Source of the DNA: an uncultured delta proteobacterium
GTDB lineage: Bacteria; Desulfobacterota; RBG-13-43-22
Direction of reading: 5' to 3'
DNA length: 64,000 nucleotides
Assembly (NCBI GenBank): GCA_963743305.1
Contig: CAVUPH010000014.1
Location: forward strand, 224,001-288,000
In this document: piece by piece, positions 7,094 through 51,800 of the stretch
Position numbering within the stretch: the stretch's first letter is position 1
How the letters are laid out: each line of letters opens with the position of its first letter
The notes under the pieces: generated by a model
The model's input: only the letters and a program-made list of their open reading frames with translations
Told to the model about the DNA's origin: nothing
Database searches by the model: none
Program-made: the position numbers and the translations under genes

Positions 7094-7146
7094 GGAGAAG
7101 ATGAAACCCATTTTTCTTTGTCCCAGAGACATTCCCAGAGGGCACC

Positions 7147-26000: not shown

Positions 26001-28327
26001 GAAGCGTCCTTTATCCGGCACAAGGTGCAGAGGGTCTTATCTTTCAAGTCAATAATCCGGTATCCCCTGGCGCAAATCTGGTCACGAATCCGGTCGGCCT
26101 CGGTGAACTCTTTGCGCTGCCGGGCCTGCTCCCGTTGCTCCAGCATATCCCGCACTTCTAAAGGGAGCTCCCGGTCCGGAAAATCAAAAATTTCCAATAC
26201 GGTGTTGGTCTGCTTTAAGACCGAATCGATCTCCAGGAACTCTTCAGGGGTAATCCGCTTTTCAATGAACACCGGATTCAGAGCGCGGATGAGTTTGAAG
26301 AGGGCCGACAGGGCCGCCGCAATATTCAGATCGTCGTCCATGGCCCGCTTAAACCGGGTTTTGAAAAGATAAAGGGCCTCGCCGACCTCCGGATGCTCTT
26401 CTTGCCCCGCTTGCTGGGAATAAAGTTTCTGGACGAATTCATCCAGGCGTTTTAATGTCTTCCGGGACGTCTCCAGGGTTTTAAGAGAAAAATGAAGGGG
26501 TTTGCGATAGTGAGTGGACAGCAGCCAGTACCGGACTTCCCGACCGGTGTAGCCCTGGTTCAAAAGGTCCCGCAAGGTGATCACATTCCCGCCGGCCGGG
26601 GAAATCTTTTTCCCTTCCACGTAAACCAGATCGCTGTGCAGCCAGTAGTTCACGAATTTCTTGCCGGTGGCCGCTTCGCTGATGGCGATTTCGTTTTCAT
26701 GATGGGGGAATACCAGATCCATCCCGCTGGTATGGATGTCAAAGGTTTCTCCCAAATATTTTAAGGCCATGGCCGAACATTCCACATGCCAGCCCGGACG
26801 CACATTCCCCCACTCGGTAACGAAATAGATCCCTTTCTTGAGTTCCGAAAGGTTGGTGCGCTTCAGCAAAGTGAAATCCCGGGGGTTGTCTTTTTCATAT
26901 TCATCCAGGTCTACGGTTTTCCCGAGCTGGATTTTTTTTAAGTCAACCCGGGACAAGTGGCCATAAGGCTTAAAACGGGAGATATCAAAGTAAACCGAGC
27001 GGAACTTTTCATAGGCATACCCTTTTTTCAAGAGTTCCCGGGACAGGGCGATCATGTCCTCCACGTGCTCACTGGCCTTAGGATAATGGGACGCCCGTTT
27101 AATCCGCAAGGTGTCGATATCGCTTAAAAACGCCTGGGTGAAATACCCGGTGAAGGCCTCCAGGGTCTGGTTGGCTTCTTCGGCTCCGCGTATCGTCCGG
27201 TCATGAAGGTCGGTAATATTCATGACATGTTGGACTTCCAACCCCTTGAATTCCAGGTAGCGGCGCAGCAAATCGGCCATGACAAAGCGGCGGCAATTCC
27301 CCAGATGAATCAAAGCGCTGACAGTGGGACCGCAGGAATAAATGGAAACCCGGTTTTCCTTGAGGGGGACAAAATTTTCCTTTTCCCGGCTCAGGGTGTT
27401 ATAAAAAACCAGCCCGTTTTTTTCCTTTTCATCGAAGAGCGTGGTGCTCAGATAGCGTTCCCCGCCGTCCGGGCAGATGACCACAATCAGGCCTTTCTTG
27501 AGTTGCTGGGCCTTTTGGAGGGCTACGAATACGGCTCCTCCTGAACTCATCCCCAGCAGAAGGCCTTCTTCCCTGGCCAGCTTCCGGACCGTTTCAAAGG
27601 CCTCTTCATCCTCCACGTTGACCACTTCGTCCAAAATACTCTTGTCATAGATACCGGGCTTATACGATTCCTTCATATTTTTCAGGCCCTGGATCTTATG
27701 ACCCAAATAAGGCTCCACGCCGACTATTTTTATGTTCGGGTTAAATTCCTTGAGCCGCTTGGTCAGGCCCATCAGAGTTCCGGTGGTCCCCATGGTGGCC
27801 ACCACCATGGTCACCTTGCCCCCGGTCTGCTCCCAGATTTCCCGGCCGGTGCCGTGGTAGTGGGCCATGATGTTGTCCTGGTTATTAAACTGGTCCGGCA
27901 AGAAATAGCGTTCCGGGTTCTCCCGAGCCATTTGATAGACCTTTTCGATGGCCCCATCGGTGCCCAGGTGAGCCGGCGTCAGGAGGATCTTGGCCCCGTA
28001 GGCCCGGAGGATCTTTTGGCGTTCAATGCTGGCCGATTCGGGCATAGCCAGAAGCAGCGGATACCCCCTGACGGCAGCTACCAGGGCCAGGCCGATTCCG
28101 GTGTTTCCCGAGGTGGCTTCAATAATGGTTTTATCCTTAGTCAAGGTGCCGCTTTTTTCCGCACCCTCCACCATGGACAAGGCGACGCGGTCCTTGATCG
28201 ATCCGCCAGGATTAAAGGACTCGATCTTAGCCCAGACCGCCGCCTTCTTATTGAGATTAAGTCGATTCAATTTGATCAATGGGGTATGGCCGATGAGGCT
28301 GGTTATGTCGGGAAAGGCTTGTTTCAT
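25988..28327 (-). CDS. cysS: Cysteine synthase (CysK/CysM) - cysteinyl-tRNA synthetase fusion
   Basis: N-term NPGGSIKDR (PLP Lys), EATSGNTG, GTTGT, DGGERYLST; C-term CGPTV..HLGN, PGWHVECSAM, FPHHENE, DDDLN. Confidence 0.92.
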   Translation of the reverse strand: MKQAFPDITSLIGHTPLIKLNRLNLNKKAAVWAKIESFNPGGSIKDRVALSMVEGAEKSGTLTKDKTIIEATSGNTGIGLALVAAVRGYPLLLAMPESASIERQKILRAYGAKILLTPAHLGTDGAIEKVYQMARENPERYFLPDQFNNQDNIMAHYHGTGREIWEQTGGKVTMVVATMGTTGTLMGLTKRLKEFNPNIKIVGVEPYLGHKIQGLKNMKESYKPGIYDKSILDEVVNVEDEEAFETVRKLAREEGLLLGMSSGGAVFVALQKAQQLKKGLIVVICPDGGERYLSTTLFDEKEKNGLVFYNTLSREKENFVPLKENRVSIYSCGPTVSALIHLGNCRRFVMADLLRRYLEFKGLEVQHVMNITDLHDRTIRGAEEANQTLEAFTGYFTQAFLSDIDTLRIKRASHYPKASEHVEDMIALSRELLKKGYAYEKFRSVYFDISRFKPYGHLSRVDLKKIQLGKTVDLDEYEKDNPRDFTLLKRTNLSELKKGIYFVTEWGNVRPGWHVECSAMALKYLGETFDIHTSGMDLVFPHHENEIAISEAATGKKFVNYWLHSDLVYVEGKKISPAGGNVITLRDLLNQGYTGREVRYWLLSTHYRKPLHFSLKTLETSRKTLKRLDEFVQKLYSQQAGQEEHPEVGEALYLFKTRFKRAMDDDLNIAAALSALFKLIRALNPVFIEKRITPEEFLEIDSVLKQTNTVLEIFDFPDRELPLEVRDMLEQREQARQRKEFTEADRIRDQICARGYRIIDLKDKTLCTLCRIKDASCPE

Positions 28328-33368: not shown

Positions 33369-33512
33369 AGAGAATTCTACTATAATTGAGGCCCGCCCGG
33401 TACAAAGAGAAGAAGTCCCTCAGGCCATAGACTCTTCACCGCGGTGTGAAAAACCATTTCTCCGAAATCCAGGCGGCCCCAAAGGCTTGGGTTTGGACTG
33501 CTTTACTATATT

Positions 33513-35132
33513 ATGCGTCATCTCTTCAAAGGCTGCAATAACCATCTGCTCATCTTATTGAGTTATTCCCTTTTGACTTTTCTCTTTACCTATCCTTTAC
33601 CTGTTCAAATGGGAACATCCCTTTATGGGCATGAATTGGTCGGCTTCAATGTCGACCCCTATGCCGAGATGGAACGTTTCCAAAGGGTCAAACAAACCTT
33701 TCTGGCCACCGGAAAGCTTTGGTTTTCTCCTTTTATCCACCCCCTGGTGGCAGTTCCCGGAGCACTCTTAACCGAGGCTTTTGATGAGGTTGTTGCTTTT
33801 AATCTATTACTCCTAATCAGTTTTCCTCTGGCCGGGTTTTTTACTTACCTCCTCGCGTATCAGCTTACTCAAAAACCCTTCCCTTCCTTTTTTGCCGGCC
33901 TGGTTTATTCCTTTTCCCCTTACCACTGGGTCCATGCCTATTATCATTTGAGCCTTTCTCAGATCCAGTGGTTCCCCCTCTATTTGTTGAGCCTTATTCT
34001 GTTTTCCCAAAAAAAGTCTTTTCCCCGAGGCCTCCTGGTTATGGGTTCTCTGCTCGTCCTGGTCTTGACCAACTACTATTATGCCCTCTTCGGCCTGCTC
34101 CTGACCATTCTGTTTATCCTCTATCACGGGGGGTTCCTTTATGTGAACCGGGGTCAGAAGGTTTTCCCGCACGCTTCTTTCTGGGTCCTGCTGGGAGTCT
34201 TGACTTTGGCCGGCCTGCTATTCTCATTATATTTCTATAATCATCTGGTGCTGATTTACCATAACCTGCCCTCTTTCAGCGCCCGTTACCCGGATCTCTT
34301 TCGGTACGGCTCCCGACCCTGGGGATTTATTGTCCCACCCCAAGACAACCCCTTCTTAGGCTGGATTGGAAAGAACTACATCCATTCCCGACTGGAAGGG
34401 GGGACTTTGGTCGAGCATACCTTGTACCTGGGGTTGGTCCCCCTGCTCTTGTCCATTCTGGCAGTATATAGCGGGCTCCGGGGAAAACCAAAGCCCTTCG
34501 CTCAAAGTCCTTCCTATTATCTCGGCTTTTTCGGAATCCTATTCATCTTGGCCCTTATTTTTTCCCGGCCTCCGCTGACCACCGTTGGGGGGTTGAAGAT
34601 TCCCCTGCCGGCCTACTACCTTTACCCGGTCTTCCCCATGTTCCGTTCCTATGCCCGCTTCGGCCTTTTGGCCTATCTGGCCCTGGCCCTTCTGGCGGCG
34701 GGCGGCCTCACCCTGCTCCAGACCCGTTGGCCCAAAAACTATTGGATTCCGGCTTTAGCCTTTCTTTTGCTGGTCATCGAATATGCCAATCTTCCCCCCT
34801 GGCGGTACCGGCCCATCCTCCCCACCCAAGCCCATCGGTATCTTGCTGAAAAGGTTAGGGATGTGAAAGTGGTCGATTATTTTCCACAAAAATTTTATGA
34901 CCTCCCGCCCATCCGCAAGCGGATGAACAACCATTTGCTGACGGGCCGGGAAATGGCGGCCTTTGCCCTGGTCAATCTTTCTCGGCCTGACCTCTTCCCA
35001 AGACTACGCCTCCAAGGAGTATCTTATGCCATCTTCCCTCCCGATCGCCTCGGACTTTTAGGTGAGAAAGGGCCCCCTCCGGTGATGCGTTTCCCGGATT
35101 CGGTTCTCTTCCGAATCGATCCCTTCCCTTAA
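33513..35132 (+). CDS. Multi-pass membrane protein, GT-C glycosyltransferase-like (YfhO-related)
   Basis: About a dozen hydrophobic segments; YLL..LT......AG..YSFSPYH, YLG, FR.YARF patterns; soluble C-terminal domain. Confidence 0.65.
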   Translation: MRHLFKGCNNHLLILLSYSLLTFLFTYPLPVQMGTSLYGHELVGFNVDPYAEMERFQRVKQTFLATGKLWFSPFIHPLVAVPGALLTEAFDEVVAFNLLLLISFPLAGFFTYLLAYQLTQKPFPSFFAGLVYSFSPYHWVHAYYHLSLSQIQWFPLYLLSLILFSQKKSFPRGLLVMGSLLVLVLTNYYYALFGLLLTILFILYHGGFLYVNRGQKVFPHASFWVLLGVLTLAGLLFSLYFYNHLVLIYHNLPSFSARYPDLFRYGSRPWGFIVPPQDNPFLGWIGKNYIHSRLEGGTLVEHTLYLGLVPLLLSILAVYSGLRGKPKPFAQSPSYYLGFFGILFILALIFSRPPLTTVGGLKIPLPAYYLYPVFPMFRSYARFGLLAYLALALLAAGGLTLLQTRWPKNYWIPALAFLLLVIEYANLPPWRYRPILPTQAHRYLAEKVRDVKVVDYFPQKFYDLPPIRKRMNNHLLTGREMAAFALVNLSRPDLFPRLRLQGVSYAIFPPDRLGLLGEKGPPPVMRFPDSVLFRIDPFP

Positions 35133-35154
35133 CCAATATGATCGGATAAATCAC

Positions 35155-35184
35155 TTGACAGCCTTAAGCGGATCTTCCTACTAT
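35155..35184 (+). promoter_or_regulatory. Sigma70-type promoter
   Basis: TTGACA (35155-35160)-N18-TACTAT (35179-35184); predicted start site about 35191. Confidence 0.7.
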
Positions 35185-35190
35185 CATTTG

Positions 35191-35335
35191 AACCTTGTTC
35201 GCTTGGCAGTTTAGGCTCGGGACTCGAGGTCTAGGTGCCTTTGGATAGCCCTCTCGCCGAGACCCGTCGGCCAGACCAAATAGGCGGGGGAACCCACCCA
35301 AAAAGGCGAAGCGTCATTTTATAATGCAGAGGTAA
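35191..35335 (+). ncRNA. Candidate structured RNA (6S-like sRNA or regulatory leader)
   Basis: Starts at the predicted TSS; nested pairings ACCT/AGGT, TTCGCTT/AGGCGAA, CGGG/CCCG, CTCG/CGAG; no ORF. Confidence 0.4.
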
Positions 35336-35357
35336 CCCCATTTCTCAGAGACCCTTC

Positions 35358-36503
35358 ATGCCCGACTATCGACCCAGGATGGATCTGGAATCCGTACTCT
35401 TGGACGACGAATTAATGATCTTTGATCCGGTCCGCGACGAAACCCATATCTTAAACGAAACCGCTGCCGAGATCTGGCGGTTGCTGACCGAGAAAAAATC
35501 GTTGCCCGAAATATTGAATCATTTTTTCGAACACCATGGGACTGAGGACAAGGAAGACCTCCGGAAAATTCTTCAAAGTACCTTGATCCGATTTAATCAA
35601 AAAGGTCTCCTGATCCCAACAGGCCCCTCCAAGTCAAAACAAGAGAAAGACGCTGAACTTGAGGACGCCTTGTCCCGGCAGGAGCGACTGCTGTCCGAAA
35701 CCCCCGACGATCCCCTGGTACTCGGCAACCTGGGGGTTCTCTATATTCAATCGGGTCGCTGGCCGGAGGCCGAAGCGTTACTGGTTCGGGCCCGGGGGCT
35801 GGAACCGACTAATGCAGCCTTGGCCTTTAACCTGGCATCCCTTTGGCATCGCCTGGATCGGTCCGCGGAGGCCTGGGAAATACTGGAAAGAGTCGACTCC
35901 CAGCATCCCGGCAATGTTCACCTCCTGAGCCTTTCCGGAAAGATATTGACGGCCTTGCGCCGTTTGGACAGCGCCGAAGATAAATTCCTTCAAGCCTTGG
36001 CCATTAATCCGGAATTACTCAATCTGTACAATGAACTGGCTTTGGTCTACCTCCTGCTGGACCAACCGGAGGCGGCGGAAGCCCAACTCACGGCAGCCCT
36101 CAAACGATCCCAAGTTTATTCGGATACTTTCCGGAACCTGGGAAACCTCCGTTTGAAAGAAAACAATCCGAAGGCCGCGGAAGGGTATTTCCGGCAGGCA
36201 CTGGAATTAGATCCCGGAGACGTTTTGGCCCGGTATGCATTGGCCTGGATTTATTTCCAGCGGAGGGAGTTCGGCCAAGCGGTTCAGGAAGCGGAGTCCT
36301 GTCTTCAGCAAAGTCCGACCTGGCTGCTTCCCTATGAATTCTTGGTTCAGGTTTATCAAACCCGGGGAGATCGGTTCCAGGCCCTGTTGGTCTATAGCCG
36401 CGTCCGTAGGGCCGTCCCGGATTTCAGTCGGCAAGAGTTCCCTTTCCTGGCGACCCTGGAGCGGGCAGTCCTTAAAAATACCCCTGAGAATAAAAGGCGT
36501 TAA
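35358..36503 (+). CDS. PqqD-family RiPP recognition element fused to TPR repeats
   Basis: N-term about 85 aa LDDELMIFDP..DETHILNETAAEIWRLL.......I...GLL (PqqD/RRE), then TPR repeats (NLGVLY, ALAINP, NLGNL, ALELDP). Confidence 0.85.
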   Translation: MPDYRPRMDLESVLLDDELMIFDPVRDETHILNETAAEIWRLLTEKKSLPEILNHFFEHHGTEDKEDLRKILQSTLIRFNQKGLLIPTGPSKSKQEKDAELEDALSRQERLLSETPDDPLVLGNLGVLYIQSGRWPEAEALLVRARGLEPTNAALAFNLASLWHRLDRSAEAWEILERVDSQHPGNVHLLSLSGKILTALRRLDSAEDKFLQALAINPELLNLYNELALVYLLLDQPEAAEAQLTAALKRSQVYSDTFRNLGNLRLKENNPKAAEGYFRQALELDPGDVLARYALAWIYFQRREFGQAVQEAESCLQQSPTWLLPYEFLVQVYQTRGDRFQALLVYSRVRRAVPDFSRQEFPFLATLERAVLKNTPENKRR

Positions 36504-37773
36504 TGAAACCGGCTGTTGGTTTTATCCGCCACTTGTTTCAGTATATTGCCCAAGCGGATCGGATTGAGTCCTTTCAAGAATTTCTCGGGCGTCCAGAAAA
36601 TGGGCTCTCCTGGGGGGAGCTTTTCCATCTCCTTCAAATGCAGGGCCTCGCACCTTTCACCTATTACTCCCTGCGTGCCCCCGAGTGGCAGTCCCTACTC
36701 CCGGAAACTTTCCTGGCCCGATTAAAAAATACTTTTCGGGAAACCAGCCTCCAAAATTTCTTCCTTCAGCGGGAATTGAAGCGCCTCAACGAACATTTTG
36801 ATCTAGCCCGCTTGATCGTGGTCCCCCTTAAGGGGGCCAGTCTCATCAACCGGCTCTATCCGCTGCCCGGTCTTCGCCCCATGCAGGATATCGACCTGCT
36901 GATTCATGACCGGGACTGGGAAAAGGTCAAGCGGGTTCTGCTTACCGCCGGATATCAACCCCTCTCCGATCTGCCCGAAAAATGGGTTAAGGGTTTTCAT
37001 TTTCATGCCGCCTTTATCCTGCCGGAGCGTAACTTGGTGGTGGAAGTCCACTGGAACTTGACGGATGAACATCTCCTGCCGTTTGAATCAATGGAAGACC
37101 CTCTGGGACCGGGTCTATTTTTCTGAATCCACCAGATCCTGGTTTCTGGCTGACCGGGATCAGTTTCTTTACCAATGCCTGCACCTCTATAAGCACGGGA
37201 CCTTTAATGCCGTGCTGGCTCGGCACCCGATCGCTATGATCTCCTTTTCGAACCGCTAAGCGGAAACCGCCTGATCTGGTTTCTGGATCTCTGGCTGCTG
37301 ATGAAGGGTGAACCCCATCCGGACCTGGAAGGATTGATCCGGGAGGCGCAACACTGGCAAGTGGGACCGGCCCTCCATTCCGGCCTGGTCCTGACTCAAA
37401 ACTTATTCCAGCCCCTTCCTCAGTGGACTTGGCCTTTCGAGCAACCGCTGCCCGCTATCCCACGGGCAAAGTATTTCCTGCTGGCCCGTTTAGCGGACGG
37501 GAGCGGCCAGAGAAAAACGCTGGACCCTGGACCCTGCTTAAACGGCTGCAATCCCTCGATCAGCGCCTCCATGTCCGCCCTGTCCGGGCCCTGGATATGA
37601 TTGACCGCCTCCTTCCTTCATCGGACCAGCGACGGGAGTGGTCGGTGCGGCATTCCAGACGTTGGGTCCCTTTTTTATACCTGTTCGCTTTTCTCCAAGG
37701 ATTGGGTTTTGCTTTTTCCCGGGCCTCAATCCTGATTAAAATGAAAAGATACCGGGGCCTGAAAAAAACATGA
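36503..37773 (+). CDS. NTP_transf_5-family nucleotidyltransferase (three frameshifts)
   Basis: PLKGASL, RPMQDIDLLI, VEVHW, CLHLYKH, RLIWFLDL across fragments; shifts near 37083 (+1), 37228 (-1) and 37526 (-1) repair to 424 codons ending in an ATGA overlap with the next gene. Confidence 0.8.
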
Positions 37774-38951
37774 CCCTCTCCGATCAGCTTGCCAGGGAAA
37801 AATGGGGGGCACGGGCGGGCTATCGCCGGATTTATCTTTTTTTTGGCCACCCCATCGAGTTTTTAACCGACTCCGAGCCCGATTTCAGCGACTTTGATAC
37901 CATCTACCGCCGGTTCCAAAGGGGTCCGGAACACCATTCCTTTAAAGAGGAGATAAATCCTCTTTTTCTTTTGCGTGAGCGGAAGCATTCCGGCTATCTG
38001 CTCTATTTGAATAATCGGCTCTTCCAGGTCCCTGCTCCAACTAATCGGTTAGAGCTGTTTATGTATTTGCTCAATTACCTTTTGGATCGGACAGAGAATT
38101 TCTTTATGGTACACGGGGCGGCCCTGGCGGATCTGGACCATGGACTGATTATCGCCGCCCCTTCCGGTAGGGGAAAGTCCACCTTGACCTTGGAACTCCT
38201 AACCCGGGGAAAAAAATTTCTCTCCGACGAACTGGCCTTGATTTCCGTCCAGGACGGAGGGATCCAGGCCTTTCCCCGCGCCCTGGCCGTCAGCCGGGAA
38301 AATCTGAACAACGTTTTGTCCCGGAGAGGCGAAAGATTCCGTAAATTTTTGCCGGCCCTGGGGCGGGAAGGCCGGATGATGTTCGATGTGGAGGATCTTT
38401 TCCCCGGCCAGGTGGCCACGCACTGCCAACTCCGGAATATAGTTTTTGTCGAGCCCGCGACCCTGACCAAATCGGTAGCAAGCGGCATCCCCCTGGAGAT
38501 CGGGTTCACCGCCCTTCCCGAGGGCCTGTGCCGGACAATGATGGATATTCCGGCAATAAAAAAAGTGGATCAAATCCAGGCATTGCCCTACCCCATCCTT
38601 CGCCTGACCTGTCAAGCAGAAACAGCCCTGATGGCCCAGATCCAGGAGGTAGCGGCGACGCAGGGGGTGGGGATCTGCAGTTATTACCCCGAGGGGAAGG
38701 AAGGGATCGATTACCTGGCCACCCCGGACTTGATTAAATTGAAACCCTCGTCCGGGATCACCACCCTGCTCCGCTATGTCTTAAACATCCCGGCGCTCAC
38801 CCGTTCCTTCAGCGATTCGTCCGGCGGACGTCAGCGCCTCCTGTTTCGATTGGCCCAGACCACCCGAGGCGTTCAGTTTTATCGGCTCACACCGGGAATT
38901 CTTTCCCAAATGACGGACTTGATCGATGGAATTGCCCGGAGGGCATCTTAA
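37770..38951 (+). CDS. HprK-related P-loop kinase
   Basis: VHGAAL..., APSGRGKSTL Walker A, FLSDE, AFPR. Confidence 0.85.
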   Translation: MTLSDQLAREKWGARAGYRRIYLFFGHPIEFLTDSEPDFSDFDTIYRRFQRGPEHHSFKEEINPLFLLRERKHSGYLLYLNNRLFQVPAPTNRLELFMYLLNYLLDRTENFFMVHGAALADLDHGLIIAAPSGRGKSTLTLELLTRGKKFLSDELALISVQDGGIQAFPRALAVSRENLNNVLSRRGERFRKFLPALGREGRMMFDVEDLFPGQVATHCQLRNIVFVEPATLTKSVASGIPLEIGFTALPEGLCRTMMDIPAIKKVDQIQALPYPILRLTCQAETALMAQIQEVAATQGVGICSYYPEGKEGIDYLATPDLIKLKPSSGITTLLRYVLNIPALTRSFSDSSGGRQRLLFRLAQTTRGVQFYRLTPGILSQMTDLIDGIARRAS

Positions 38952-38985
38952 TGGACGGTAATGGAGGATTGTTCGCGAGGTTATC

Positions 38986-39576
38986 ATGATTGACTTCGCC
39001 GGAATCAGGGAGGAATCGGTTTCCGCCCTCCTGGCCGATTATCAGGTCCAGGGCCGGGAACAATGGTTTCCGATCCGGGGTCGAAGCATGAGACCCTTAT
39101 TACGGGAGGGGGATGAAATCCAGGTCCGTTTCTGCTTCCCGGAAAACATTCGGAAAGGGGACCTGGCCGTCTTTTGGGAAGGAAGGGTTTTGAAAGCCCA
39201 CCGGATCCTGGATATCTTCAAAACATCCCAAGACATCCTCTTTCTGGAAAAAGGAGACAGCAACCCTACCGCCAGCTATATTCCTTCTTCCCGGATCAAG
39301 GGCCTGGTTCAGGCCGTTCGGAAACCATGGGGGGTGGTTGGGTTGGATCGCGCCTGTTGGCGCTGGTGGAATCGGATGGTGTCCAGATCCGGGTATGGTT
39401 TTATCCGTGCCTTTGCTTTCTTCCCTTCCCCAGAAAAAGGAAAAACCGGTTCTCCCAGCGCTTACGGGCCATTCTGGGGATACCGGTCCTGGATCTATTT
39501 GCTCTTGTTCTTTCCTCTTTTCGAAGAAAGAATTCGAGCCTTTTTCATTTCTCGTTTTAACAGGGCGGGGAGATGA
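38986..39576 (+). CDS. S24/S26-family peptidase
   Basis: IRGRSMRPLLREGD (catalytic Ser), GDLAVF, AHRI, EKGDSN; no N-terminal TM anchor. Confidence 0.85.
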   Translation: MIDFAGIREESVSALLADYQVQGREQWFPIRGRSMRPLLREGDEIQVRFCFPENIRKGDLAVFWEGRVLKAHRILDIFKTSQDILFLEKGDSNPTASYIPSSRIKGLVQAVRKPWGVVGLDRACWRWWNRMVSRSGYGFIRAFAFFPSPEKGKTGSPSAYGPFWGYRSWIYLLLFFPLFEERIRAFFISRFNRAGR

Positions 39577-40018
39577 CACAGGAGCGGTGATTGCTGGAAT
39601 TCCCATCCTGATCCTGGATGAAAAAGTCAATAGTCACCGGTATCAGCTCCGGGGCCTCCAGTATTTCAACGCATTCCCCGGATTTCCCGCTCACACATGT
39701 CTGGTCGGTCAGCGGAGCGCAAGTCGTTGAAACACCGACCCGGCCGGTTTTGGCCGGGTAAATATAGGCATAGCATTTTTTTCCCCCCACCATGTCCCCG
39801 GCAATTTTCTGCCAGTCAAACTTCACCTGTATACGGGGCAGCGTTTCCGGGCATTCATTGTTGAAAGGGACTTCGGGGTTGCAGGTGAAGGTCGTCAGTT
39901 GAGGCGGGCTGTTGGTCGGAGGTCCATACTGGGTAATAATCGGGCCGACCAAATGGTCCAAGGTTGCCTGGTTATAGCTTTGAATCTCCGGTTTCAAAAA
40001 TACTTTCTTGGATTTCAT
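39557..40018 (-). CDS. Cys-rich protein with RiPP-like leader (putative RRE substrate)
   Basis: KKVFLKPEI leader, 8 Cys, GAGG RBS and own promoter-like sequence upstream. Confidence 0.7.
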   Translation of the reverse strand: MKSKKVFLKPEIQSYNQATLDHLVGPIITQYGPPTNSPPQLTTFTCNPEVPFNNECPETLPRIQVKFDWQKIAGDMVGGKKCYAYIYPAKTGRVGVSTTCAPLTDQTCVSGKSGECVEILEAPELIPVTIDFFIQDQDGNSSNHRSCVISPPC

Positions 40019-40083
40019 TCTTTCTTCCTCAACGATAAAATCACCAAAGGATCTGGTTTAGGGCATTGTGACTCAACTTATTA

Positions 40084-40114
40084 AATATATGCTCTAAAAT
40101 CAACCGGTTGTCAA
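40084..40114 (-). promoter_or_regulatory. Candidate promoter with overlapping IHF-consensus site
   Basis: Minus strand TTGACA-N17-CATATATT; AATCAACCGGTTG (40098-40110) matches WATCAANNNNTTR. Confidence 0.45.
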
Positions 40115-40177
40115 TAGAAAAAACCAGCGCCCTCCCCCCATTTCAAAAAATCTCGACGATTGCAGCGGACTCCAGAT

Positions 40178-40462
40178 CTAATGGAATTTCTGTTCTCCCT
40201 GGTCGACCACCTTTATCGGGCCATATTGCCGTTCATATTTTTCCAGGTTATCCTTCAGGGCATTGATAATCCTTCTTAAATTGCTGGGGCTGACCATAAT
40301 GCGAGAGACTAAAAACGTCCCGCTGGGGGAGTTCAAGAGCCAGTCTAGGATAAACTCCTCCGGGCTGTGGGAAGCGATCAAGGAATTGCTGTAACGGCCG
40401 CGCATCATTTCGTCGCCGGTATTGATTTGGATCTGCTGAGGGGGGTTGTTCGGGTTGGTCAT
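40178..40462 (-). CDS. DUF3467-family protein
   Basis: GRYSN....HSPEEFILD...VSRIMVSP......L..NL.KYE..YG.I; AAGGAGG RBS. Confidence 0.88.
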   Translation of the reverse strand: MTNPNNPPQQIQINTGDEMMRGRYSNSLIASHSPEEFILDWLLNSPSGTFLVSRIMVSPSNLRRIINALKDNLEKYERQYGPIKVVDQGEQKFH

Positions 40463-40608
40463 GGTGGCCTCCTTAATATAACCACTAAATTTTGTTAGCA
40501 TATGCTTTTATTACCTGATAAAAAAGAAAAAACGTTTATCCACCCTTCTTACCTGCGGTGAGGTCCTCGGTCTTTTCCGCGGCTATCGCCGATGAGCTTA
40601 TCTTAACC

Positions 40609-41499
40609 ATGCGACTCCGGCACCTTGTCGATTACCTGAAGTTGTTACGAATTCATCATTATGTCAAGAATGCTTTTATCTTTCTGCCGCTTTTTTTTGC
40701 CGGTGAATTTTTGTTGGTAGACTCCCTTATTTTAAATTTGCGCGCTTTTTTTGTCTTTTCTCTCGTTGCCAGCTCTATTTACATTTTTAACGACCTAAAG
40801 GATCTTCAGGAAGATCGCGAACATCCGACAAAACGACTGAGACCTCTGGCCAGCGGAGTTATTTCTCAATCGGCGGCCTGCCTTACCATGGCACTTTTGA
40901 TCAGCTTAGGGTTGGGTCTTTCCGCCTACTGGTTTCATTTTGATTTTCTGGCTTTAATTGTCTTTTATTTGATCATCAATATGGGTTACTCCCTAAAGTT
41001 GAAACATGTGCCCCTAGTGGATATAACGATCATCGCCTTCGGTTTCGTTATCAGACTTTTCGTCGGTTCAGTAACGGCCAAAGTGCCCTTGACCTTCTGG
41101 ATCATCACCCTGACCTTTCTACTCGCCTTGTTTCTCGGTTTCGCCAAAAGAAGGGATGATATCCTGATTTATAACCGCAGCCACAAGAAAACAAGAAAGA
41201 GCTTAGACGGGTATAATCTGGAATTTGTAAACGCAGGAATGGTGGTGGTTGCCGGAACAATGATCGTTTCCTATTTTATGTATACCCTATCGCCGCAGAC
41301 GATCTCAAAATTGGGCACAGATAAGCTCTATCTGACAACCCTATTCGTTATCCTAGGTACGCTAAGGTATCTCCAAAAAAGCTTCGTTGAAGAAGAGAGT
41401 GGATCCCCGACAAAGATATTACTGAAGGACTTTTTTTTGCAGACCACGATTTTCCTGTGGTTATTCTCCTTTACGGTAATCCTTTATCTGAGGCGGTAG
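40609..41499 (+). CDS. UbiA-family polyprenyl-phosphate phosphoribosyltransferase (DPPR synthase-like)
   Basis: R.HHYVKN, YIFNDLKD..EDREHPTKR.RPLASG, YSL.LKH, AKRR, GSPT. Confidence 0.85.
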   Translation: MRLRHLVDYLKLLRIHHYVKNAFIFLPLFFAGEFLLVDSLILNLRAFFVFSLVASSIYIFNDLKDLQEDREHPTKRLRPLASGVISQSAACLTMALLISLGLGLSAYWFHFDFLALIVFYLIINMGYSLKLKHVPLVDITIIAFGFVIRLFVGSVTAKVPLTFWIITLTFLLALFLGFAKRRDDILIYNRSHKKTRKSLDGYNLEFVNAGMVVVAGTMIVSYFMYTLSPQTISKLGTDKLYLTTLFVILGTLRYLQKSFVEEESGSPTKILLKDFFLQTTIFLWLFSFTVILYLRR

Positions 41500-42855: not shown

Positions 42856-45800
42856 ATGAACCTAAAAAATTCACAACCTGAAAATAAAGGGGTGGTCAAG
42901 CGCTGGATTCCCCGAAAACCGGACGGCCAAAGACAACGGCTACGGCAACCCCGGGTTATACTAGCAGTAGTCGCGTTTCTTCTCTTAAGCCTTCCTTACC
43001 TGGCGGGGGCCACCACGACCATCAACGAACAGTTCAGTCCGGACGTGATCAATCAGGGCGATGCGTCTCTCTATACCATTTCGATCACTAACGATGATAC
43101 GATTAATCTCACCAGTGCCATGGTGACGGTCTTCCTCGACAATACCACAGCCGCCCCCAACACCTCGGGCGGTCACATAACCATCGCCAGCGGGACGGTC
43201 GTCGACAATACCTGCGGTTTTTCTGTGGACAGTGCGGGTGCCGGAACGAGCAAGATCGTGCTGACCGGCGGAACGATTCCTGCGGGCTCGCCGGCCACTC
43301 CCTCGGTCTGCACCTTCTCCCTGGAGGTCACCTCCGTCACATTAAGCACATACCATGCGGTCATCCCGGCTAACACGACCCCGGATGCCACTACTTCCGG
43401 GTATGCGGCCACGGGGAATTCCATTATCGTCCATAACACGACATCCGCCGACATCACCCTGCAAGTGAACGCCCTCTCAGCGCCCACCGGCAACAAGGCC
43501 TTCTCGCCCTCTCCGGCGGTCGCCGGCGATCCGATCACGCTGACCATTACGGTCAGCAATCCCAATGCCACCAGCACGATGCCGCTGACGACCTTCACCG
43601 ACAGCCTGCCTGCAGGCATGGTCGTGGCCGGCACGCCCGGTGCTTCCGTCAACTGCACCGGAGCGGGGGCCGTCAATGGGGCCTTTGCACCCCTGGCCAA
43701 CGATACCTCGCTCACGCTTACTGGCGGAACGATAGGGCAGGGAGGTGCCTGCACCCTCTCCGTCCAGGTGGTTGTTCCGACCATCTCCGGCACTACCCAG
43801 AGCTTCGACAATAGTCTGGGAAGCGGCGCCATCGGAAATAGCCGCGGTCTTACCAGCCCGGCCTTTAATAGGACCCTGACCGTCAATTCTCCCATCAATG
43901 TGACCAAGAGTTTCGCCACGTCTCCGATACCGGCGGGCCAGCCTTCCCGGATGACGATCACTATTACCAACAACAGTACGGTCAATGCCCTGGACATTAC
44001 GCAATTCAACGACCATCTGACCGGCACCACGCTGAAGGTCCTCAATCCCTCCAGTTCCCCGGTTGCCGGCATTACGCCCAGCGTCACTTGCGACGGCACT
44101 GGATCTGTCAACGGCTCACTCACCTACACCGTGGACACACTGGATTCCACCTTGACCCTCACCAACGCCAAAGCCGGTCCCAAATCCGGCGGCACCGGCA
44201 AGTGCATAATCATCGCTGACCTGACCTCCACGGTGGATGGAGCGCATACCAATACCCTCCCTGCCGACGCAGTAGTCAGCACCGGCGGTTACCACAGCCC
44301 CAGTGCCTCCGATACCCTGACGGTCAACGCCCAATTGACGGTGGATAAGACCGTATCGGTGAACCAGGTGGCTCCCGGACAGTGGACGAGGTTCACGGTC
44401 ACCATTTACAATTGGTCCGGCGCCCCCGTCACGAATCTGAGCTTCCGCGACGACCTGCCCTCAAGCGGCGGGAGCCAGATGGTGCTCGACGGCGGCAATC
44501 CGATCTCTTCTTTAGGTTGTACCGGTGGGACCTGGACAGGGGCTCCCGGCGAGGCGACGCTTCAGTGGAGCAACGGGACGGTAGCGGGCGGCTCCGGCAC
44601 CTCGCCGGGGATCTGCACGATCGTCTTTCAGACCAGGCTGCCTATTTCCACCCCAACGGGACTTACCTTCGGCAACCAGATTCCAGCTTGGGATGGCACC
44701 CATGGTGCAGGGGGGGACGGTCCCGGCGGACCCGTAGTCAACCCGGCATCCAGCCCTGCTGCCAACGTATTGAGTGTCGATGCGGTGGCGATCACCAAGA
44801 CCTTTGCCCCGGCCTCCATCGCCCAGGGCGGAATTTCGACCCTGACCCTAACCATCCGCAACCGGGTGGTAACCGGCGGCCTGAGCAATGTGAACCTAAC
44901 CGACAATTTCCCGGCAGGCATCACGCTGGCCGCCAATCCCGCCGCGACCAATAGCTGTAATGGCACACTCCAAGCATTTCCCGGAGACAGCAAACTGATC
45001 TTGACCGACGGCAGCTTAGCCGCGCGGCCCAACGACGGGCAGGAAACGACCTGCACGATTACCGCGAGGGTTACCGGTACGACTGTTGGGACCTACAATA
45101 ACACTATCTCGGGGGCGACGTATGGCCTGGTGCCGACGACGATACCCGACAGCAATACGGCCACGCTGACCATCGCGACCGGTCTATCCGGCGCCAAGTC
45201 CTTCAACCCGACCAGCGTCACTTCAGGCGGCACCTCGCGGGTCACGATTACCGTGACTAACGGCTCCAACGGCGATCTCACCAATGTGTCGGTGGATGAC
45301 AATACCTTCGGCGCAGGCCTGACCGTGGCTAATCCGGCCAATGCCGCCACGAGCTGTCCGGGCTCTCCGACGATGGTCGCCAACCCGGGGGCAACCCGTG
45401 CGCAGTTGCTGGGCGCTACCCTGGCGGCCGGCGCGAGTTGCGATTTTTCATTCGATGCCGAGACCAGCGGCGCCGGTCCCTGGAGCAACACTATCCCCAG
45501 CGGCAAGATCACGAGCGCCGAGGGCCCGGCCAACACCGCGGCCATCTCAGCAGCACTCAGCGCTGTTTCTACCCAGATCAACATCAACAAGTCTTTCAAC
45601 CCGGTCGTTGTGACCGGCGGCGTCCCCTCCACCCTAACCCTGACTCTGACTAACCCTTCCAATACAACCCTGCACGGCATCGGCTTCACCGATGTATTTC
45701 CGACCGGGATCCAGGTATATTCCGTTCCCGCCGTGACTTCAACCTGCCCCGGCGGAAGGGTCACCGCCATCCCCGGTGACGGCCAAGTCAGCCTCGCCGG

Positions 45801-48800
45801 CGCAACCCTGGCCTCCGGCAGTACCTGTGTCGTTACCCTTCAAACGACTTCGGTCAAATTCCTTAACCTGACCAACAATATACCGGCCGGCGCCATCGAG
45901 AGCTTCGAGGGCTATACGAACCCGCTGTTGGTCTCGGCCACGCTTTCGACCCTGCAGGGACTGGGCGTCATGAAGGCCTTCTCGCCGGCCTATGTGACCC
46001 CTGCTACGGTCACAAAACTCAAGATGTGGCTGGTCAGCACCTTTGACCCCAACGCCCCGACCCCCCTGACCCTTACCGGCGTCTCCTATACCGATACCCT
46101 TCCCGCGAATGTTTTTGTATCGGCTGCGCCGGATGCCACCACCACCTGTCCAGGACCCGGTGGCGTCGGAAGCGCCACCATAACCGCGAATCCAGGAGCT
46201 GCCCTTATCACGGTCTCAGATGCCCACATCGTCCCCGGCGCGGTCTGCGAGATTTCGGTTAATGTCGTAGCTCCCGGCTCCATCGGCACCTACACCAATA
46301 TTATCCCGGCCGATGCCATCACCACCCTCCAGGGACCGACGAACAGCGAACCCGCCACCGCCAGGCTCTATGTAGTCAATCAGCCCACGATCAACAAGGC
46401 CTTTAGTCCCAAGGTGGTATCCGTGGGCGGCACAAGCACATTAACTGTCACCATAAACAACGGCGCGGGCATTCCGCTGACCGGTCTCTCCCTTACCGAT
46501 ACTTTACCGGCGGGACTGGCCATTGCAGGCAATCCGGCCGTGGCCACTACATGCTCCAACGGAAGCGTTACCGCTGATCCCGGCAGTGACGCTCTCTCGC
46601 TCAGCGGCGCCGTCGTCCCGGCAAACGGCTCATGCACCTTTTCTGCCAGGGTTGTGGCCAATTCCCCTGGGGTCTTTATCAATAATATCAACGCCGGGGA
46701 GTTGGTCAACAACGAGGGCCTCACCAATAGCGGTCCGGCCAACGACACCCTGACGGCGCGCCTGACGCCCACGGTGAATAAAACCGTTCAACCCGGTCTC
46801 GATCGCCTCCGGCAGCTCCTCGACCCTGACTATAACGGTCGGCAACAGCAATGGCGGGCCGATTACACTTACCGCGCCTCTGGTCGACGCCCTGCCGGGC
46901 AACGTGGTGGTAGCCGATACGCCCAATGCCAGTACTACCTGCGGTCCGGGTACGCTCTCCGCCAGTCCGGGGGACATTTCCCTCAGCTACGCCGGGGATA
47001 TCCCTGATGGCGGCTGCACAATATCCGTCGACGTGACTTCCAGCGTCTGCGGTGTGCATACCAACAGTATAGCGGCGGGACAACTTCAGACCTCTGTCGG
47101 AAACAACCAGGATCCTGCCTTTGCCGACTTGGGGGCTTGTAGCGCGCTCGTCCCCACAATAAGCAAGTCCTTCAGCCCCGGCACGATCCCGGTGAACGGA
47201 ACCTCTACGCTGACCATAACCCTGGCCAACCCGAATGCCTCGGCCTTGACGCTTTCTTCGGATTTTTCCGACAACCTGCCGGGTACCGTGCGGGTGGCGT
47301 CAACGCCCGCGGCCGGGACCACCTGTCCGAACGGCACCGTTACCGCCGTTGCCGATGCGACCGGCATCACCCTCCAACGCGGCAGCGGCCCCTTCACCCA
47401 GATCCCGGCTTCCGGTAGTTGCACCGTCACCGTTAACGTCACCTCGGCGGCGGAAGGCAGTTATACGAATACCATCCTGGTCGGTGACCTGCAGACCGAC
47501 GGCGGCAGCAACAGCCAGCCGGCAATAGCGTCCCTGGTGGTGCAGGCACCCATCCCGCCGACAGTGGATAAATCCTTTACTCCCAATACGATCAACCCCG
47601 GCGGCCTCTCGACGCTGACCATCTCCTTGGGCAACAGCAATGGCGGATCAATAAATCTGACCGCCAATTTCATTGATACGCTTCCTGCCGGAGTGACCGT
47701 GGCCGCTACGCCGAACATCCGCGGCACCTGTACGATCGGCAGTATCACGGCCGGAGCCGGCACCGGTATTATTTCCTACGCGACAGGCGCGTCCATTCCC
47801 TCCGGCGGTTGTACAATCCTGGTGGATGTGACGGCGACCAGCAATGCGGGTTCACCCTATACCAATACCATCCCGGTCGATGCCTTGCAGACCAGTGCGG
47901 GCAACAATGGCGCCTCGGCAACGGATAGCCTCTTCGTGAACCCGCCCCAGCCGCCGTCGGTCAGCAAGTTCTTCTCGGCGCCAAAATTTCTCTCTGCCGA
48001 CACGGTGACGCTCACCCTCGCCCTGGGCAACGGCAATAGTACTGCTGCCACCTTGACAGCCGATCTCGTCGACACGCTGCCCTCGGGTCTTATTATCGCT
48101 ACGCCCAACGGTTTAGTGACCAACTGCGCCGGTACGGTGCTGGCACCGGCCGGAGGCAGTACCCTGACTTACCAGAGCGGCGGCACTATCCCGGGCAACG
48201 GGGGCTGCGCTATCTCGGTGACCCTCAAAGCGGCGGATGGCTTACCCCATCACCTGTTTACCAACACCATTCCCGCCGGGGCCTTACAGACGAACTTCGG
48301 CGACCAATGCCGTCGCCTTCCACCGCCACCGTCCAGGTCCTGGTCCGGCCGACGGTCGCCAAGACCTTTAACCCTTCGACCATCAAGTACAACCAAAATT
48401 CAACCCTGACTCTCACGCTTGGGCAATATCAACGATGTCCCGATCACGCTGACTCAGGACCTGGTCGATACCCTGCCGGCGAACGTCTTCCTGGCCACGC
48501 CGGCGACCATCGGCGGCACCTGTATTAGCACCAATCCCGGCAAAGTAATCGCCGCCAACGGCGGCGGCACAGTCACCTACCAGAGCGGGGCCACCATACC
48601 CGCGGGCGGTTGCACCATCACGGTCCCCGTGACCTCCACCACCATGGGCGATTACACCAATACCCTCAACGTCGACGATCTCAAGACCGATGCCGGGACC
48701 AACCCCGCGCCGGGCTCGGCGCAACTGATCGTGCTGGCCCCGCCGACGTTGAGCAAGGCCTTCTCCCCGACGTACATCATCGCCGGCGCGCCCTCGACCC

Positions 48801-51800
48801 TGACGCTGACGCTCGGCAATCCGAATACGCACGTTTTGACGCTGCAATCGGCCCTTTCCGACAATCTGCCCGGCATCATTAAAGTAGCGAATCCGCCGTC
48901 CGTCGGCGGCACCTGCCCAGGCGCCGTCACCGCGGTTGCGGGCGCGGGGACCATTACCTACGCCAGTGGGGCGACTATCCCGAGCGGAGGATGCACCATC
49001 ACCGTGAATGTGGCCGGCTCAACAGCCGGCTTCTACACCAACACGATTTCGTCCGGAGGGCTCGTCACCGAGGCAGGAATCAATGCCGCGGCTGCCACAG
49101 ACACGCTTACTGTTGCCTCACCCTCTATGACCAAAGTCGATCACCAGCGTGAGTCCCGGTCCGAATTCGCCTAATGCCACGGTCGGAGATACGGTAACCT
49201 ATTCCATCCAGGTGACCCTCCCGGAGGTGAGCGCCCCGGGGCTGGTCTTGACCGACACGCTTCCGGCGGGATATCAGTATGTCAACGGATCGGTGAGCGT
49301 CGTGTTGGGCTCGTTCAACGGTACGGTGACGCCGACGCCGACGGTGACACCTTCCGGCTTCGCCCACTCGGGGCAGACCGTAACCATCGATTTCGGTGAC
49401 GTTACGGTAAACACCGATGGCAACTCTTCGAATAACACCTTCGGCGTCACCCTCCAGGCATTGGTAATCGATGATTCCGCCAACGCCGCCCTCGCTTCGG
49501 CCCAGACCAAGCCCAATAGCGTCAGCCTGAACTACACCGGGAAGCCGGCGGGTGCGATCTCCGCGTCGGTGAACCAACCAATTCAGGAGCCACGGCTGAC
49601 CATCACCAAGGGCATGGCCCCGGCCAGCCCTGACGCCGGAACTACCGTAACCGTGACCCTGACCGTCAACAACACCGGCACCGCACCGGCCTATGGCGTT
49701 GTCGTCACCGACGACCTCTCCGCCATGACCCCGGAATCGCCCTTCGATCTGGCTACCGTAGCGGAACTTTCCACCCCTGCGGGTTTTACCTACAGTTTTG
49801 CCGCCAATACCGTTTCCTATACCGCCAACGCCTCCCAGACGATTGCCGCGGGGGGCTCCAAGGTGTTTACCTTTACGGCGATCGTAAAAAACACGGTCGT
49901 GACCGGTATTACCTACACCAACAATGTCTCGGTCACCGGCGACGGACAGGACGGGGCGGTAAACCCCCAGCGCGTCACTTCCCAGAACAACAGCGCCACG
50001 CTTTCTTCGGCGGCCTCTTCGGTGAGCAAGGTACTGACCACCACCTCGGAGACTGATACCGGCAACCCCAATGTGGCGGTCGGCGAGGTCGTCACTTGGA
50101 CCGCGACCTTTACCATCCCCGAGGGTGTGACCAAAAATGTGATCTTGGCCGATGTCCTGCCTGCAGGATTGACCTATCTGACCGGCTCGGCCACGCTGCA
50201 GAAGACCACGGCCAGCCTGTTCTGTTCGGATGGCGGGCCAATTGCAGCTGCCATCAATGGCGCCGTCGCCAATACCCCCGTTGCCGTGACCATGAGCGGA
50301 TCGACCGGGGAGATCCAGGTGGCCCTCGGCGACGTGACGAACTCGGCCAATGATCCGGCCAATGAGCAATACATCCTCGTCCTGCAGTCGGTCGTCGAGA
50401 ACAGCGCCGGGAACAACGCCGGCACCGTCCTCACTAACCTGGGAAGGCTTCGCTACGATAACTATACCGGCAACCAGCAGACCGTCACATCGACCAACCA
50501 GAACGTCACCGTCGTGGAACCCGCGATCACCATCAACAAGACTGTGAACCCCGCCGCCGCGGGTGGTGGCGACACCGTTACCTACACCCTCGTAGTAACG
50601 AACACCGGCGGGGCAAACCGCGCGCCGGCCTACGACCTGGTCATTACCGATCTGCTGCCGGCCGATCTGAACACACCGGCCATCGCCTGCCCCGGGGCGG
50701 GTTGCAACGCCGGCGCGACCGGCGCGACCCTGACCGCATCCTTTGGCGGCGAACACCCTGAATGCCACCATCGACCAACTCGATCCTGGTGAAGTGGCAA
50801 CCTTCACCTATACGGCGAAGCTCAATGATTCTGTTGCCGTACGGCAAATCCATTACCAATACCGCTACCTATACGGCTACAAGCCTGCCCGGCACCAACG
50901 GCACAGGCGGGGTGACCCCCGGCACGGCCGGCAGCGGGACGGGAGAAAGGACCGGGACGGGCGGCCTAAACGACCTTGACCGGCTCCGACCCGGCGACGG
51001 TTACCGTCAATACGCCGACAATCTCTAAATCCGTTGTCGGCCTCAAGAGCTACTACGCCATCGGCGAGGCCGCCACCTACCGCGTTACCCTGCCAGTCCC
51101 GGTGGGAACATCCACCAATTTTACCCTAAGCGATACCATCCCGGCGAACCTCGCCTACCAAAGCGGCTCCCTGAATGTTACGCTCCCTACCGGGGCCACA
51201 GCGAGCAACAGTCCGCTGGCCGACACCAACCCCGCCTTCTTTACCCTCGCCGGAAATGTCCTGACGCTGCACTTCGGCACACTCACTGCGCCCACGGCGG
51301 GCAATGTGACGGTCGATTTCAATGCCGTTGTCCAGAATGTGATTGCCTCCCAGGACGGCACGACCTTTACCAATTCCGCCACCCTTGCCTTTGACAACCC
51401 CGCCGGCGGCACGATCACGGTCGGCCCGGTAACGAACAACCAGGTGCGGGTAGGCGAGCCGAACCTTACCCTGGCCAAGGCCATAAGCGCTGGATCGGCC
51501 GGTTCAGACGCCGGCAACACCGTCTCGTGGCGTATCGACCTCCAAAACACCGGCCACACCACGGCCTATCAGGTCAACTGGAGCGATGTGCTGCCGGATG
51601 GTCTGTATCAGATCACCAATGTGGGGCTTTCGATCAGCGGTCAGGTCTACCTGAACGGGACTACGACCGCGCCGGTGGTGGGCGATGCTACGGTGAGCAC
51701 CACCACGCACACCCATGACACCTTAACGCTCAACCCGGTGCAGATCGATACGGGCGCGTCGCTGACCCTCACCTTTGATACCGTCGTAATGGATACGGTC

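Follow-up and report, generated by a model that had tools for sequence, protein, structure and literature searches.

The gene at positions 39557-40018 of a stretch of bacterial DNA probably encodes a precursor protein that is read by a RiPP recognition element (RRE; RiPPs are peptides made by the ribosome and modified after translation), phosphorylated, and then cut near the sequence GPIITQY. It would be the substrate of the six-gene island to which it belongs. The stretch comes from an uncultured delta proteobacterium (Desulfobacterota; RBG-13-43-22) and covers positions 224,001 to 288,000 of contig CAVUPH010000014.1, assembly GCA_963743305.1. These 64,000 nucleotides are called the window below, and plain positions refer to it. 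The gene and its product are called the target.

The evidence consists of the gene content of the island, its inheritance and loss as a unit, a conserved leader that is homologous to the leaders of short precursors in other genomes, the predicted fold, and the lack of a Sec signal. The genome of the window is referred to as G000. Related genomes that were compared with it are G402, G312, G169 and G145.

The target protein and its family

The target open reading frame (ORF) lies on the minus strand, which a first-pass annotation of the DNA had left unstated, and encodes 153 amino acids (aa), exactly the sequence that annotation quoted. Upstream of the ATG the frame continues for only 13 further codons to a stop, without an alternative start. 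The protein consists of a leader, a proline-rich linker and a cysteine-rich domain, here called the cargo (Table 1).

All eight cysteines counted earlier are present, at residues 46, 56, 82, 100, 108, 116, 147 and 153, as are the motifs N36-S-P-P and D136-Q-D-G-N. The NxPP motif is absent from two clades of the target family, and is hence not conserved. The reported lack of a hydrophobic signal peptide is also borne out. Hydropathy is low throughout: the Kyte-Doolittle mean over 19 residues has a maximum of 1.37 anywhere in the target, and windows of 10 residues within residues 1-44 stay at or below 1.14. There is no hydrophobic region of the Sec or Tat type and no RR.

Structure prediction agrees with the Ig-like fold that had been proposed. 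AlphaFold2, working from a 9-sequence alignment, models the target with a mean predicted local distance difference test (pLDDT) score of 79. Residues 40-150 form a predicted seven-strand beta-sandwich with a pLDDT of about 70-94. Residues 1-32 are of low confidence, with the leader below 65, and have a single short helix at 17-24. A Foldseek search with this model returns generic Ig-like sandwiches only (RhoGDI, a LacZ domain, NPC2), at TM-scores of 0.4-0.5.

The target family is tiny. A collection of 5.8 billion proteins holds 6 proteins at E<=0.01 among 14 candidates, and a set of 1.84 billion representatives gives 5 matches at E<=0.001, one of which (P0010) is a weak match over 35 residues. 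With the leader search described below, the family comes to 12 full-length members. Genome and metagenome scans found real relatives only on the contig of G402 (L002) and on a 1.3-kb contig (L004). Three matches of 32 residues (L003, L005, L006; E 2e-4 to 2e-5 among candidate stretches only) were judged too short. No family in Pfam or NCBIfam matches the target protein.

All 12 full-length members keep [FW]7-x-x-P10-E11-[IV]12-x-[ST]14 and G25-P26 ... Q30-Y31, and seven cysteines are invariant across them. Between the four clades, identity is 40-60% for leader residues 7-31, 26-54% for the domain, and 7-50%, with insertions and deletions, for the linker at 32-45. Going by these alignments, the leader is constrained as strongly as the folded domain. 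That a segment predicted to be disordered is so well conserved points to a functional linear motif.

More distantly, the cargo domain is related to sequences with other N-termini. One is a 145-aa ORF with a hydrophobic N-terminus in the sister genome G312 (hhalign 93.9%, P 1.6e-7), and others occur as repeats inside a 1,517-aa frame of G145.

Compared with its G402 orthologue, the whole target gene has a ratio of nonsynonymous to synonymous substitution rates (dN/dS) of 0.093, from a dN of 0.048 and a dS of 0.514. Leader codons 1-32 stand at 0.095, the remaining codons at 0.089. These values mark a gene under purifying selection. Transcription is weakly hinted at by contigs of three RNA libraries, whose likeness to the parts of 39556-39815 that they cover is 90-99%; stretches without such cover carry no information. 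No sequencing run contained half of the stretch's sampled words, and the best share was 0.27.

The gene had been credited with its own ribosome binding site and promoter candidate. The former is there, in the form of a Shine-Dalgarno sequence 7 nt upstream of the start codon. The claim of a promoter is borne out in part: a TTGACA and TATATT pair can be made out some 65 nt upstream, but with a spacer of 19 nt, and a formal sigma-70 scan of 39300-40700 with spacers of 16-18 nt found no sites.

The same leader on short precursors

It had been suggested that a search with the leader alone might find it on unrelated cargo. No such cargo turned up in the 5.8-billion-protein collection. Among 7,727 longer candidates there were 12 hits, all 12 from the same family, and among 223 short candidates there was one match, a 51-aa fragment of the same family. 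The leader was found elsewhere only by reading the surroundings of kinase homologues in six frames.

A sample of 401 genomes from the phylum contains matches to the island kinase in 30 genomes (E<=1e-6) and to the island peptidase in 27 (E<=1e-4). Homologues of both lie at most 6 kb apart in eight other genomes (G289, G035, G141, G172, G232, G165, G045, G261). Eleven kinase regions were read, and of the 114 ORFs in them that reach 90 aa, 57 were run through Pfam (L040, L044, L046 and L048 omitted; L042, L043 and L045 partial). PqqD is found beside the kinase homologue in six of the seven scanned loci (L038, L039, L041, L042, L043, L045), either as a small PqqD protein or as the N-terminus of a radical SAM (rSAM)/SPASM enzyme. 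A C25/PorU-like peptidase is present in four (L038, L039, L042, L043), and L041 additionally has NTP_transf_5. In L047 the scan gave only a transposase fragment.

Over the 11 kinase loci, a regular expression for the family leader motifs matched only the G402 orthologue. A hidden Markov model (HMM) built only from the six family leaders placed seven short ORFs, among 9,496 six-frame segments of all loci, at the top, right after the family itself. Their E-values are 3.8e-5, 1.4e-4, 7.9e-4, 0.054, 0.065, 0.28 and 1.0, and the next, unrelated segment has 1.1. An eighth short ORF, in L041, was found with a combined HMM (E 2.2e-8). The leader HMMs found no short precursor in L038, L039 and L046.

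The eight candidates are 34-54 aa long. Their leader consensus is YEKPxVITYSEEEILELIGPAQT, followed by 6-15 variable residues, the core. These leaders and those of the target family align ungapped from the aromatic residue through GPxxT, and hhalign pairs the two sets with 84.8% probability (P 6.5e-6, 28 columns). In G000 the combined HMM matches only the target, at 1.2e-13; the next match has 0.36.

The surroundings of the short ORFs resemble the island too. Each of the eight lies directly upstream of, or within one or two genes of, a distant homologue of the island kinase (21-28% identity where the match is full length); for the seven found by the leader-only HMM, at most one gene intervenes. 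Five of the eight (in G172, G141, G261, G035 and G232) have a homologue of the S26-like peptidase no more than 6 kb away on their contig. PqqD or rSAM-PqqD genes turned up in the five of the eight loci that went through a domain scan. Small PqqD proteins of three distant kinase loci, among them L043 with its short precursor, share 29-32% identity with the island RRE. No NCBIfam model matches the short precursors. To judge by their sequences and neighbours, which besides the kinase mostly include PqqD, rSAM/SPASM, C25/PorU-like and S26-like genes, they look like an unnamed RiPP class.

Some related oddities deserve mention. In L047, the 42-aa precursor (752-877) and an overlapping protein of 416 aa with 14 cysteines and a hydrophobic N-terminus (867-2117) both end in GVEFD. 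Small ORFs with YEKP[KR]II leaders and cysteine-rich cores occur in loci around homologues of the S26-like peptidase (L065 1306-1455, L072 1206-1427, L075 1713-1919, L076 1722-1964). In this phylum, removing RiPP leaders may be a common task of soluble S26-like peptidases.

The six-gene island and its inheritance

Five plus-strand genes converge on the minus-strand target, which is the last gene of the island (C14:257441-264164 in genome coordinates). The features are listed in Table 1.

Table 1. Location of the target, its island and the short precursors. Positions are those of the window, or of the named locus where one is given.
Feature	Position	Strand	Basis
Leader, residues 1-31, [FW]xxPE[IV]x[ST][YI] + [IV]GPx[IT][TA]QY	39926..40018	-	alignments, low pLDDT, hhalign
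Proline-rich variable linker, residues 32-45	39884..39925	-	between-clade identity 7-50%, length changes
Cysteine-rich beta-sandwich cargo, residues 46-153, with stop codon	39557..39883	-	AlphaFold2 model, Foldseek
Shine-Dalgarno sequence GAGGA	40026..40030	-	7 nt before target ATG; read from sequence
Promoter candidate, TTGACA (40114-40109), 19 nt, TATATT (40089-40084)	40084..40114	-	read from sequence; pair about 65 nt upstream
Six-gene island, 6.7 kb	33441..40164		G000 and G402 have it, G312 and G169 do not (blastn)
539-aa polytopic membrane protein, possibly GT-C-like	33513..35132	+	many hydrophobic segments
PqqD (RRE, residues 18-85) fused to TPR repeats	35358..36503	+	PF05402 1.5e-7 and TPR families
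NTP_transf_5 nucleotidyltransferase gene, broken	36503..37773	+	PF14907 8e-35 on first 207 aa
HprK-related kinase, 393 aa	37770..38951	+	TIGR04352 5.7e-16, PF07475 2.6e-5
Soluble SEC11/SipW-type (S26-like) serine peptidase, 196 aa, candidate leader peptidase	38986..39576	+	TIGR02228 3e-10
Short precursors, 34-54 aa	L042:623-730, L044:10737-10838, L028:1203-1310, L043:9434-9538		leader HMMs
Short precursors, 34-54 aa	L040:10835-10945, L047:752-877, L045:3189-3350, L041:5543-5758		leader HMMs

In G312, blastn homology to the window ends at 33440 and restarts at 40165, with 39 nt between. The genes flanking the island, DUF6178 and DUF3467, are adjacent to each other in G312 and in G169. Of the island itself G169 keeps only 45 nt from the start of the membrane-protein gene (33506-33550) and 82 nt of the target gene (39636-39717). 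These two remnants are joined directly, as a deletion scar on contig C15 of G169 (L055 1301-1426). Since this scar keeps pieces of both end genes, the genus had the island ancestrally, and a deletion removed it.

In G402 the gene order is identical to that of G000. The order is represented by 21 genomes, which are also all that a search at class level took in; two of them, G000 and G402, have the target. Kinase matches at E<=0.001 occur in five of the 21; those of G000 and G402 are of orthologue grade, and the other three are partial, with E>=9.5e-8. Peptidase matches occur in three: strong ones in G000 and G402, and a weak third interrupted by a stop codon. The island is one indel unit, its six genes inherited and lost together. 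Since G000 and G402 are close kin, this counts as one synteny observation plus a shared loss, and not as independent replication.

The RRE protein scores 34.2 bits against TIGR04353, for which the cut-off is 35. In a profile comparison its PqqD domain has as its closest solved relatives the lasso B1 proteins TbiB1 (1.6e-5) and TfuB1. BLASTP gives no alignment of the island RRE to the lasso B1 of G000 itself. The kinase scores 58.4 bits against TIGR04352 (cut-off 200), and its P-loop SGRGKST aligns to HprK structures.

The peptidase reaches 40.1 bits against TIGR02228, below the cut-off of 51.85. Aligned with human SEC11A/C, its GRS34MRP, AH72R and KGD91 fall on the Ser, His and Asp boxes, and GxSMxPL, AHR and EKGD are invariant in seven of seven homologues. 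It has no transmembrane segment, so the membrane anchor of the S26B type is missing.

Compared with the intact 429-aa orthologue of G402, the NTP_transf_5 gene of G000 is broken by single-base indels in four places (37081, 37226, 37502 and 37528). None of them is in a homopolymer run, and none of the other five island genes is broken. The gene may be a true pseudogene and not a product of misassembly. The 539-aa membrane protein has no Pfam or NCBIfam match, and a profile search of the PDB gave 0 matches. Its paralogues, at about 30% identity, have sub-threshold matches to PMT_2 and PTPS_related.

How the island may work

Residues 1-31 of the target would be a RiPP-type leader. The PqqD-type RRE of the PqqD-TPR protein probably binds the [FW]xxPE[IV] strand, and would so present the target to the HprK-like kinase. 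The kinase would phosphorylate a serine or threonine, either at or just after the junction of leader and cargo, or on the cargo. Candidate hydroxyls that are kept in the family are S/T14, T29, Y31, S113, S142 and S146. In genomes with an intact gene, NTP_transf_5 would go on to decorate that phosphate.

Removal of the leader, somewhere within the conserved GPx[IT][TA]QY junction, would fall to the soluble SEC11/SipW-like Ser/His/Asp peptidase. Conservation ends there in both sets of leaders. Cleavage between Q30 and Y31, as had been suggested, is possible, and is not preferred over neighbouring sites. The polytopic membrane protein may do the membrane step, which could be export or glycosylation. 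The RRE binding, the sites of phosphorylation and cleavage, the export and the disulfides are inferred.

The gene set does look like a RiPP-like system, in that a PqqD-type RRE is encoded with the precursor and a conserved leader is distinct from a variable core. The earlier proposal of an RRE-read leader on a folded cysteine-rich domain has thus kept its substance: the island has a PqqD/RRE protein, its RRE is B1-like, and the leader is collinear with those of short precursors near homologous enzymes. The lasso label attached to it did not survive.

Several things weigh against the target being an RRE-read, phosphorylated and trimmed precursor. It is transcribed convergently to the enzyme genes, and one of these, NTP_transf_5, is broken in G000. 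The junction has no site resembling Ala-x-Ala. No transporter is recognisable, which leaves the exit route of an apparently extracytoplasmic domain with eight cysteines unexplained. The motif [FWY]xxPx[ILV] is in itself not rare: among 10,383 mechanical ORFs with 100 aa or more, 163 have it within their first 20 residues. The synteny comparison spans G000 and G402 only, with the divergent members P0005, P0007-P0009 and P0011-P0013 outside it.

The reverse HMM test also failed. A model of seven short precursors, run on 113,767 six-frame segments of G000, missed the target among its 47 hits at E<=100, and scored family members directly at only 5.9 to -0.6 bits. This model is narrow because the seven peptides are very alike; the reciprocal failure still stands.

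A more far-reaching proposal is possible, and best regarded as doubtful for now. It is that a RiPP pathway of RRE, HprK-like kinase and soluble SEC11-like peptidase captured a whole Ig-like domain of extracytoplasmic type as its core. A folded protein with eight cysteines would then be guided by a leader and phosphorylated, with phospho-glycosylation in some genomes; it would also be trimmed, and would reach the outside of the cell without a Sec signal. An undescribed RiPP class of the phylum, with short cores, rSAM/SPASM enzymes and PorU-like peptidases, would be defined by this leader family.

Alternative explanations

The leader was originally described as lasso-type. At the level of the motif this is defensible, as [FW]xxPE[IV] resembles YxxPxL, which excerpts of PMC10368454 place at -17 to -12 in lasso leaders. 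The same excerpts have the kinase BsfK phosphorylating core Ser3 and requiring the B1 RRE BsfB1. HprK-like kinases and an N-type nucleotidyltransferase decorate lasso precursors, according to PMC8498205, and PMC7470986 reports that, of the discrete lasso-model RRE hits, around half come without cyclase and peptidase.

Beyond the motif, the likeness fades. Thr29 would be at -2 only with a cut behind Q30, and is then 22 residues past the aromatic residue, compared to 15 in lasso leaders; the longer spacing that the first-pass annotation had remarked on is real, and amounts to 7 residues. Neither the island nor the window holds a match to PF00733, the Asn-synthase-like cyclase, whose only matches in the genome are at C7:169959 and C14:341326. 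The B2 protease (PF13471) is not in the window either, and its only match in the genome, C14:477884-478114, is 214 kb from the island. The NCBIfam lasso-leader models do not match the target leader. What follows that leader is a predicted beta-sandwich of about 120 aa, where a lasso-type core would have some 15-25 aa and a ring-forming Asp/Glu at position 7-9.

G000 does have a lasso-type locus elsewhere (L063, C14:470000-487000; 6232-8482), with B1, B2, another HprK-like kinase and two precursors of 50 and 61 aa. These just pass lasso_leader_L3 (19.9 and 19.4 against 19 bits), and neither of the two PF00733 matches of the genome is near the locus. The leaders of the target family have only [FY]xKPE[IL] in common with those of L063, and hhalign aligns 6 columns at 2% probability. 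'Lasso-type' thus describes a motif and the ancestry of the parts, and not membership.

That the target is nevertheless a true lasso precursor, or part of a decayed lasso cluster, is very improbable. The motif, a Thr that could be at -2, the B1-like RRE, and the presence of kinase and N-type transferase genes, as phosphorylated lasso clusters typically have them, would all fit. Against this, the matches to cyclase and B2 protease are all distant from the island, and this absence already contradicts the idea; the core is a folded domain of 120 aa, the distance from motif to Thr is 7 residues too long, and neither the lasso-leader models nor the comparison with true lasso leaders gives support. 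It deserves still less credence that the target is a chance ORF and no gene at all. Such an ORF would have no Pfam or NCBIfam family, and the target has none, but the notion is already contradicted by a dN/dS of 0.09, 12 full-length homologues with identities down to 31%, and a confidently predicted fold. The RNA-library contigs add a weak hint.

Two further possibilities accept the gene and differ on what the leader is for. It is unlikely that the leader is chiefly an export tag, that is, a non-Sec signal, with the PqqD-TPR protein as cytoplasmic chaperone, the peptidase as dedicated 'signal' peptidase in the manner of SipW with TasA, the membrane protein as conduit and the kinase in a regulatory or accessory role. 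This would suit a target with eight cysteines and no Sec signal, a cargo relative with a hydrophobic N-terminus in G312 and repeats of the domain in the long frame of G145, the signal-peptidase catalytic boxes, and the presence of a polytopic membrane protein in the island. The peptidase, however, lacks a membrane anchor, the paralogues of the membrane protein point weakly to GT-C glycosyltransferases and not to a channel, and the same leader on peptides of 34-54 aa in operons with rSAM, kinase and PqqD genes is a signature of RiPP modification. The remaining possibility is coincidence: an ordinary small protein whose conserved N-terminal motif binds an unrelated partner, while the island enzymes act on another substrate. 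The convergent orientation with an own ribosome binding site and promoter candidate, the failed reciprocal HMM test and the commonness of the short motif speak for it. It is made quite improbable by the combined HMM, which finds no other leader-like ORF in the island or the genome, by the loss of the target together with the enzymes, and by the forward HMM ranking and hhalign.

Comparison with known systems

With the phosphorylated or glycosylated lasso systems (paeninodin, pseudomycoidin, Bsf of Bradymonas) the island shares a PqqD/B1-type RRE, an HprK-like kinase, the NTP_transf_5 'N' gene, and the aromatic-xx-P-x-aliphatic leader motif. It differs in having an S26-like peptidase instead of a cyclase and a transglutaminase-like B2 protease, in the fusion of its RRE to TPR, in a leader that is 7 residues longer from motif to Thr, and in a beta-sandwich of 120 aa in place of a lasso core of 15-25 aa.

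The short-precursor operons of the same phylum have a collinear leader and homologous kinase, S26-like peptidase and PqqD genes, with NTP_transf_5 in L041. Their cores are 6-15 aa long, and they have an rSAM/SPASM enzyme and a C25/PorU-like peptidase, neither of which is in the island. The membrane protein and the TPR fusion are found only on the island side.

HPr-rel-A (kinase TIGR04352, PqqD chaperone TIGR04353) supplies the best-scoring named NCBIfam models for the island kinase and RRE, even if both proteins stay below the curated cut-offs, as noted above. A literature search found no paper on the HPr-rel-A / HprK-related kinase system, nor on the combination of RRE, HPr kinase and signal peptidase. 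A soluble S26-like leader peptidase was not found in titles and the beginnings of abstracts. A system of the island's type was not found in print either, within a search that did not extend to the supplements of the cited papers, where cluster surveys are possibly located.

A dedicated signal peptidase of the endoplasmic reticulum type, encoded next to the beta-sandwich protein it processes, is known from SipW with TasA/TapA in Bacillus. SipW carries a membrane anchor and acts on proteins with hydrophobic Sec signals. The island peptidase has no anchor, and the target no such signal.

As far as the available portion of PMC13692751 (2026) goes, the archaeal CrpA/CrpC pair has a RiPP-like radical SAM enzyme that installs thioethers on a cysteine-rich protein. 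The likeness is a protein-sized cysteine-rich substrate encoded beside an RRE-bearing maturase. That system is archaeal, its substrate belongs to another family, and the part at hand mentions neither a kinase nor an S26 peptidase.

Other features in the window

Very large DUF11/DUF7933 repeat proteins, adhesin-like, are encoded at 42856-49174 and 50976-58543. The first of these is split over the overlapping frames 42856-47007, 46904-48409 and 48419-49174, either by frameshifts or by assembly errors in repeats. On the minus strand, 25988-28327 encodes a 779-aa fusion of a pyridoxal phosphate-dependent (PALP) domain and a class-I cysteinyl-tRNA synthetase. A UbiA-family protein, encoded on the plus strand at 40558-41499 beside DUF362, scores 249 bits as a decaprenyl-phosphate phosphoribosyltransferase, above the cut-off of 234. 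This gene is outside the conserved island, and that flank differs in G402.

Significance

RiPP leaders are usually regarded as handles for short peptides. Here the same handle precedes cores of 6-15 residues in some genomes and a folded domain of 120 residues in others, and homologous genes for RRE, kinase and peptidase are close by.

If the proposed role of the target is true, swapping a leader would redirect RRE-guided chemistry to whole proteins, and the island would offer a natural model for steering protein modification with a leader. Leader removal would be a job of soluble SEC11/SipW-like enzymes. A candidate substrate class would come into view for the orphan 'PqqD + HprK-related kinase' cassettes that NCBIfam models. 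It would also raise the question of how an apparently extracytoplasmic domain with eight cysteines exits the cell without a Sec signal.

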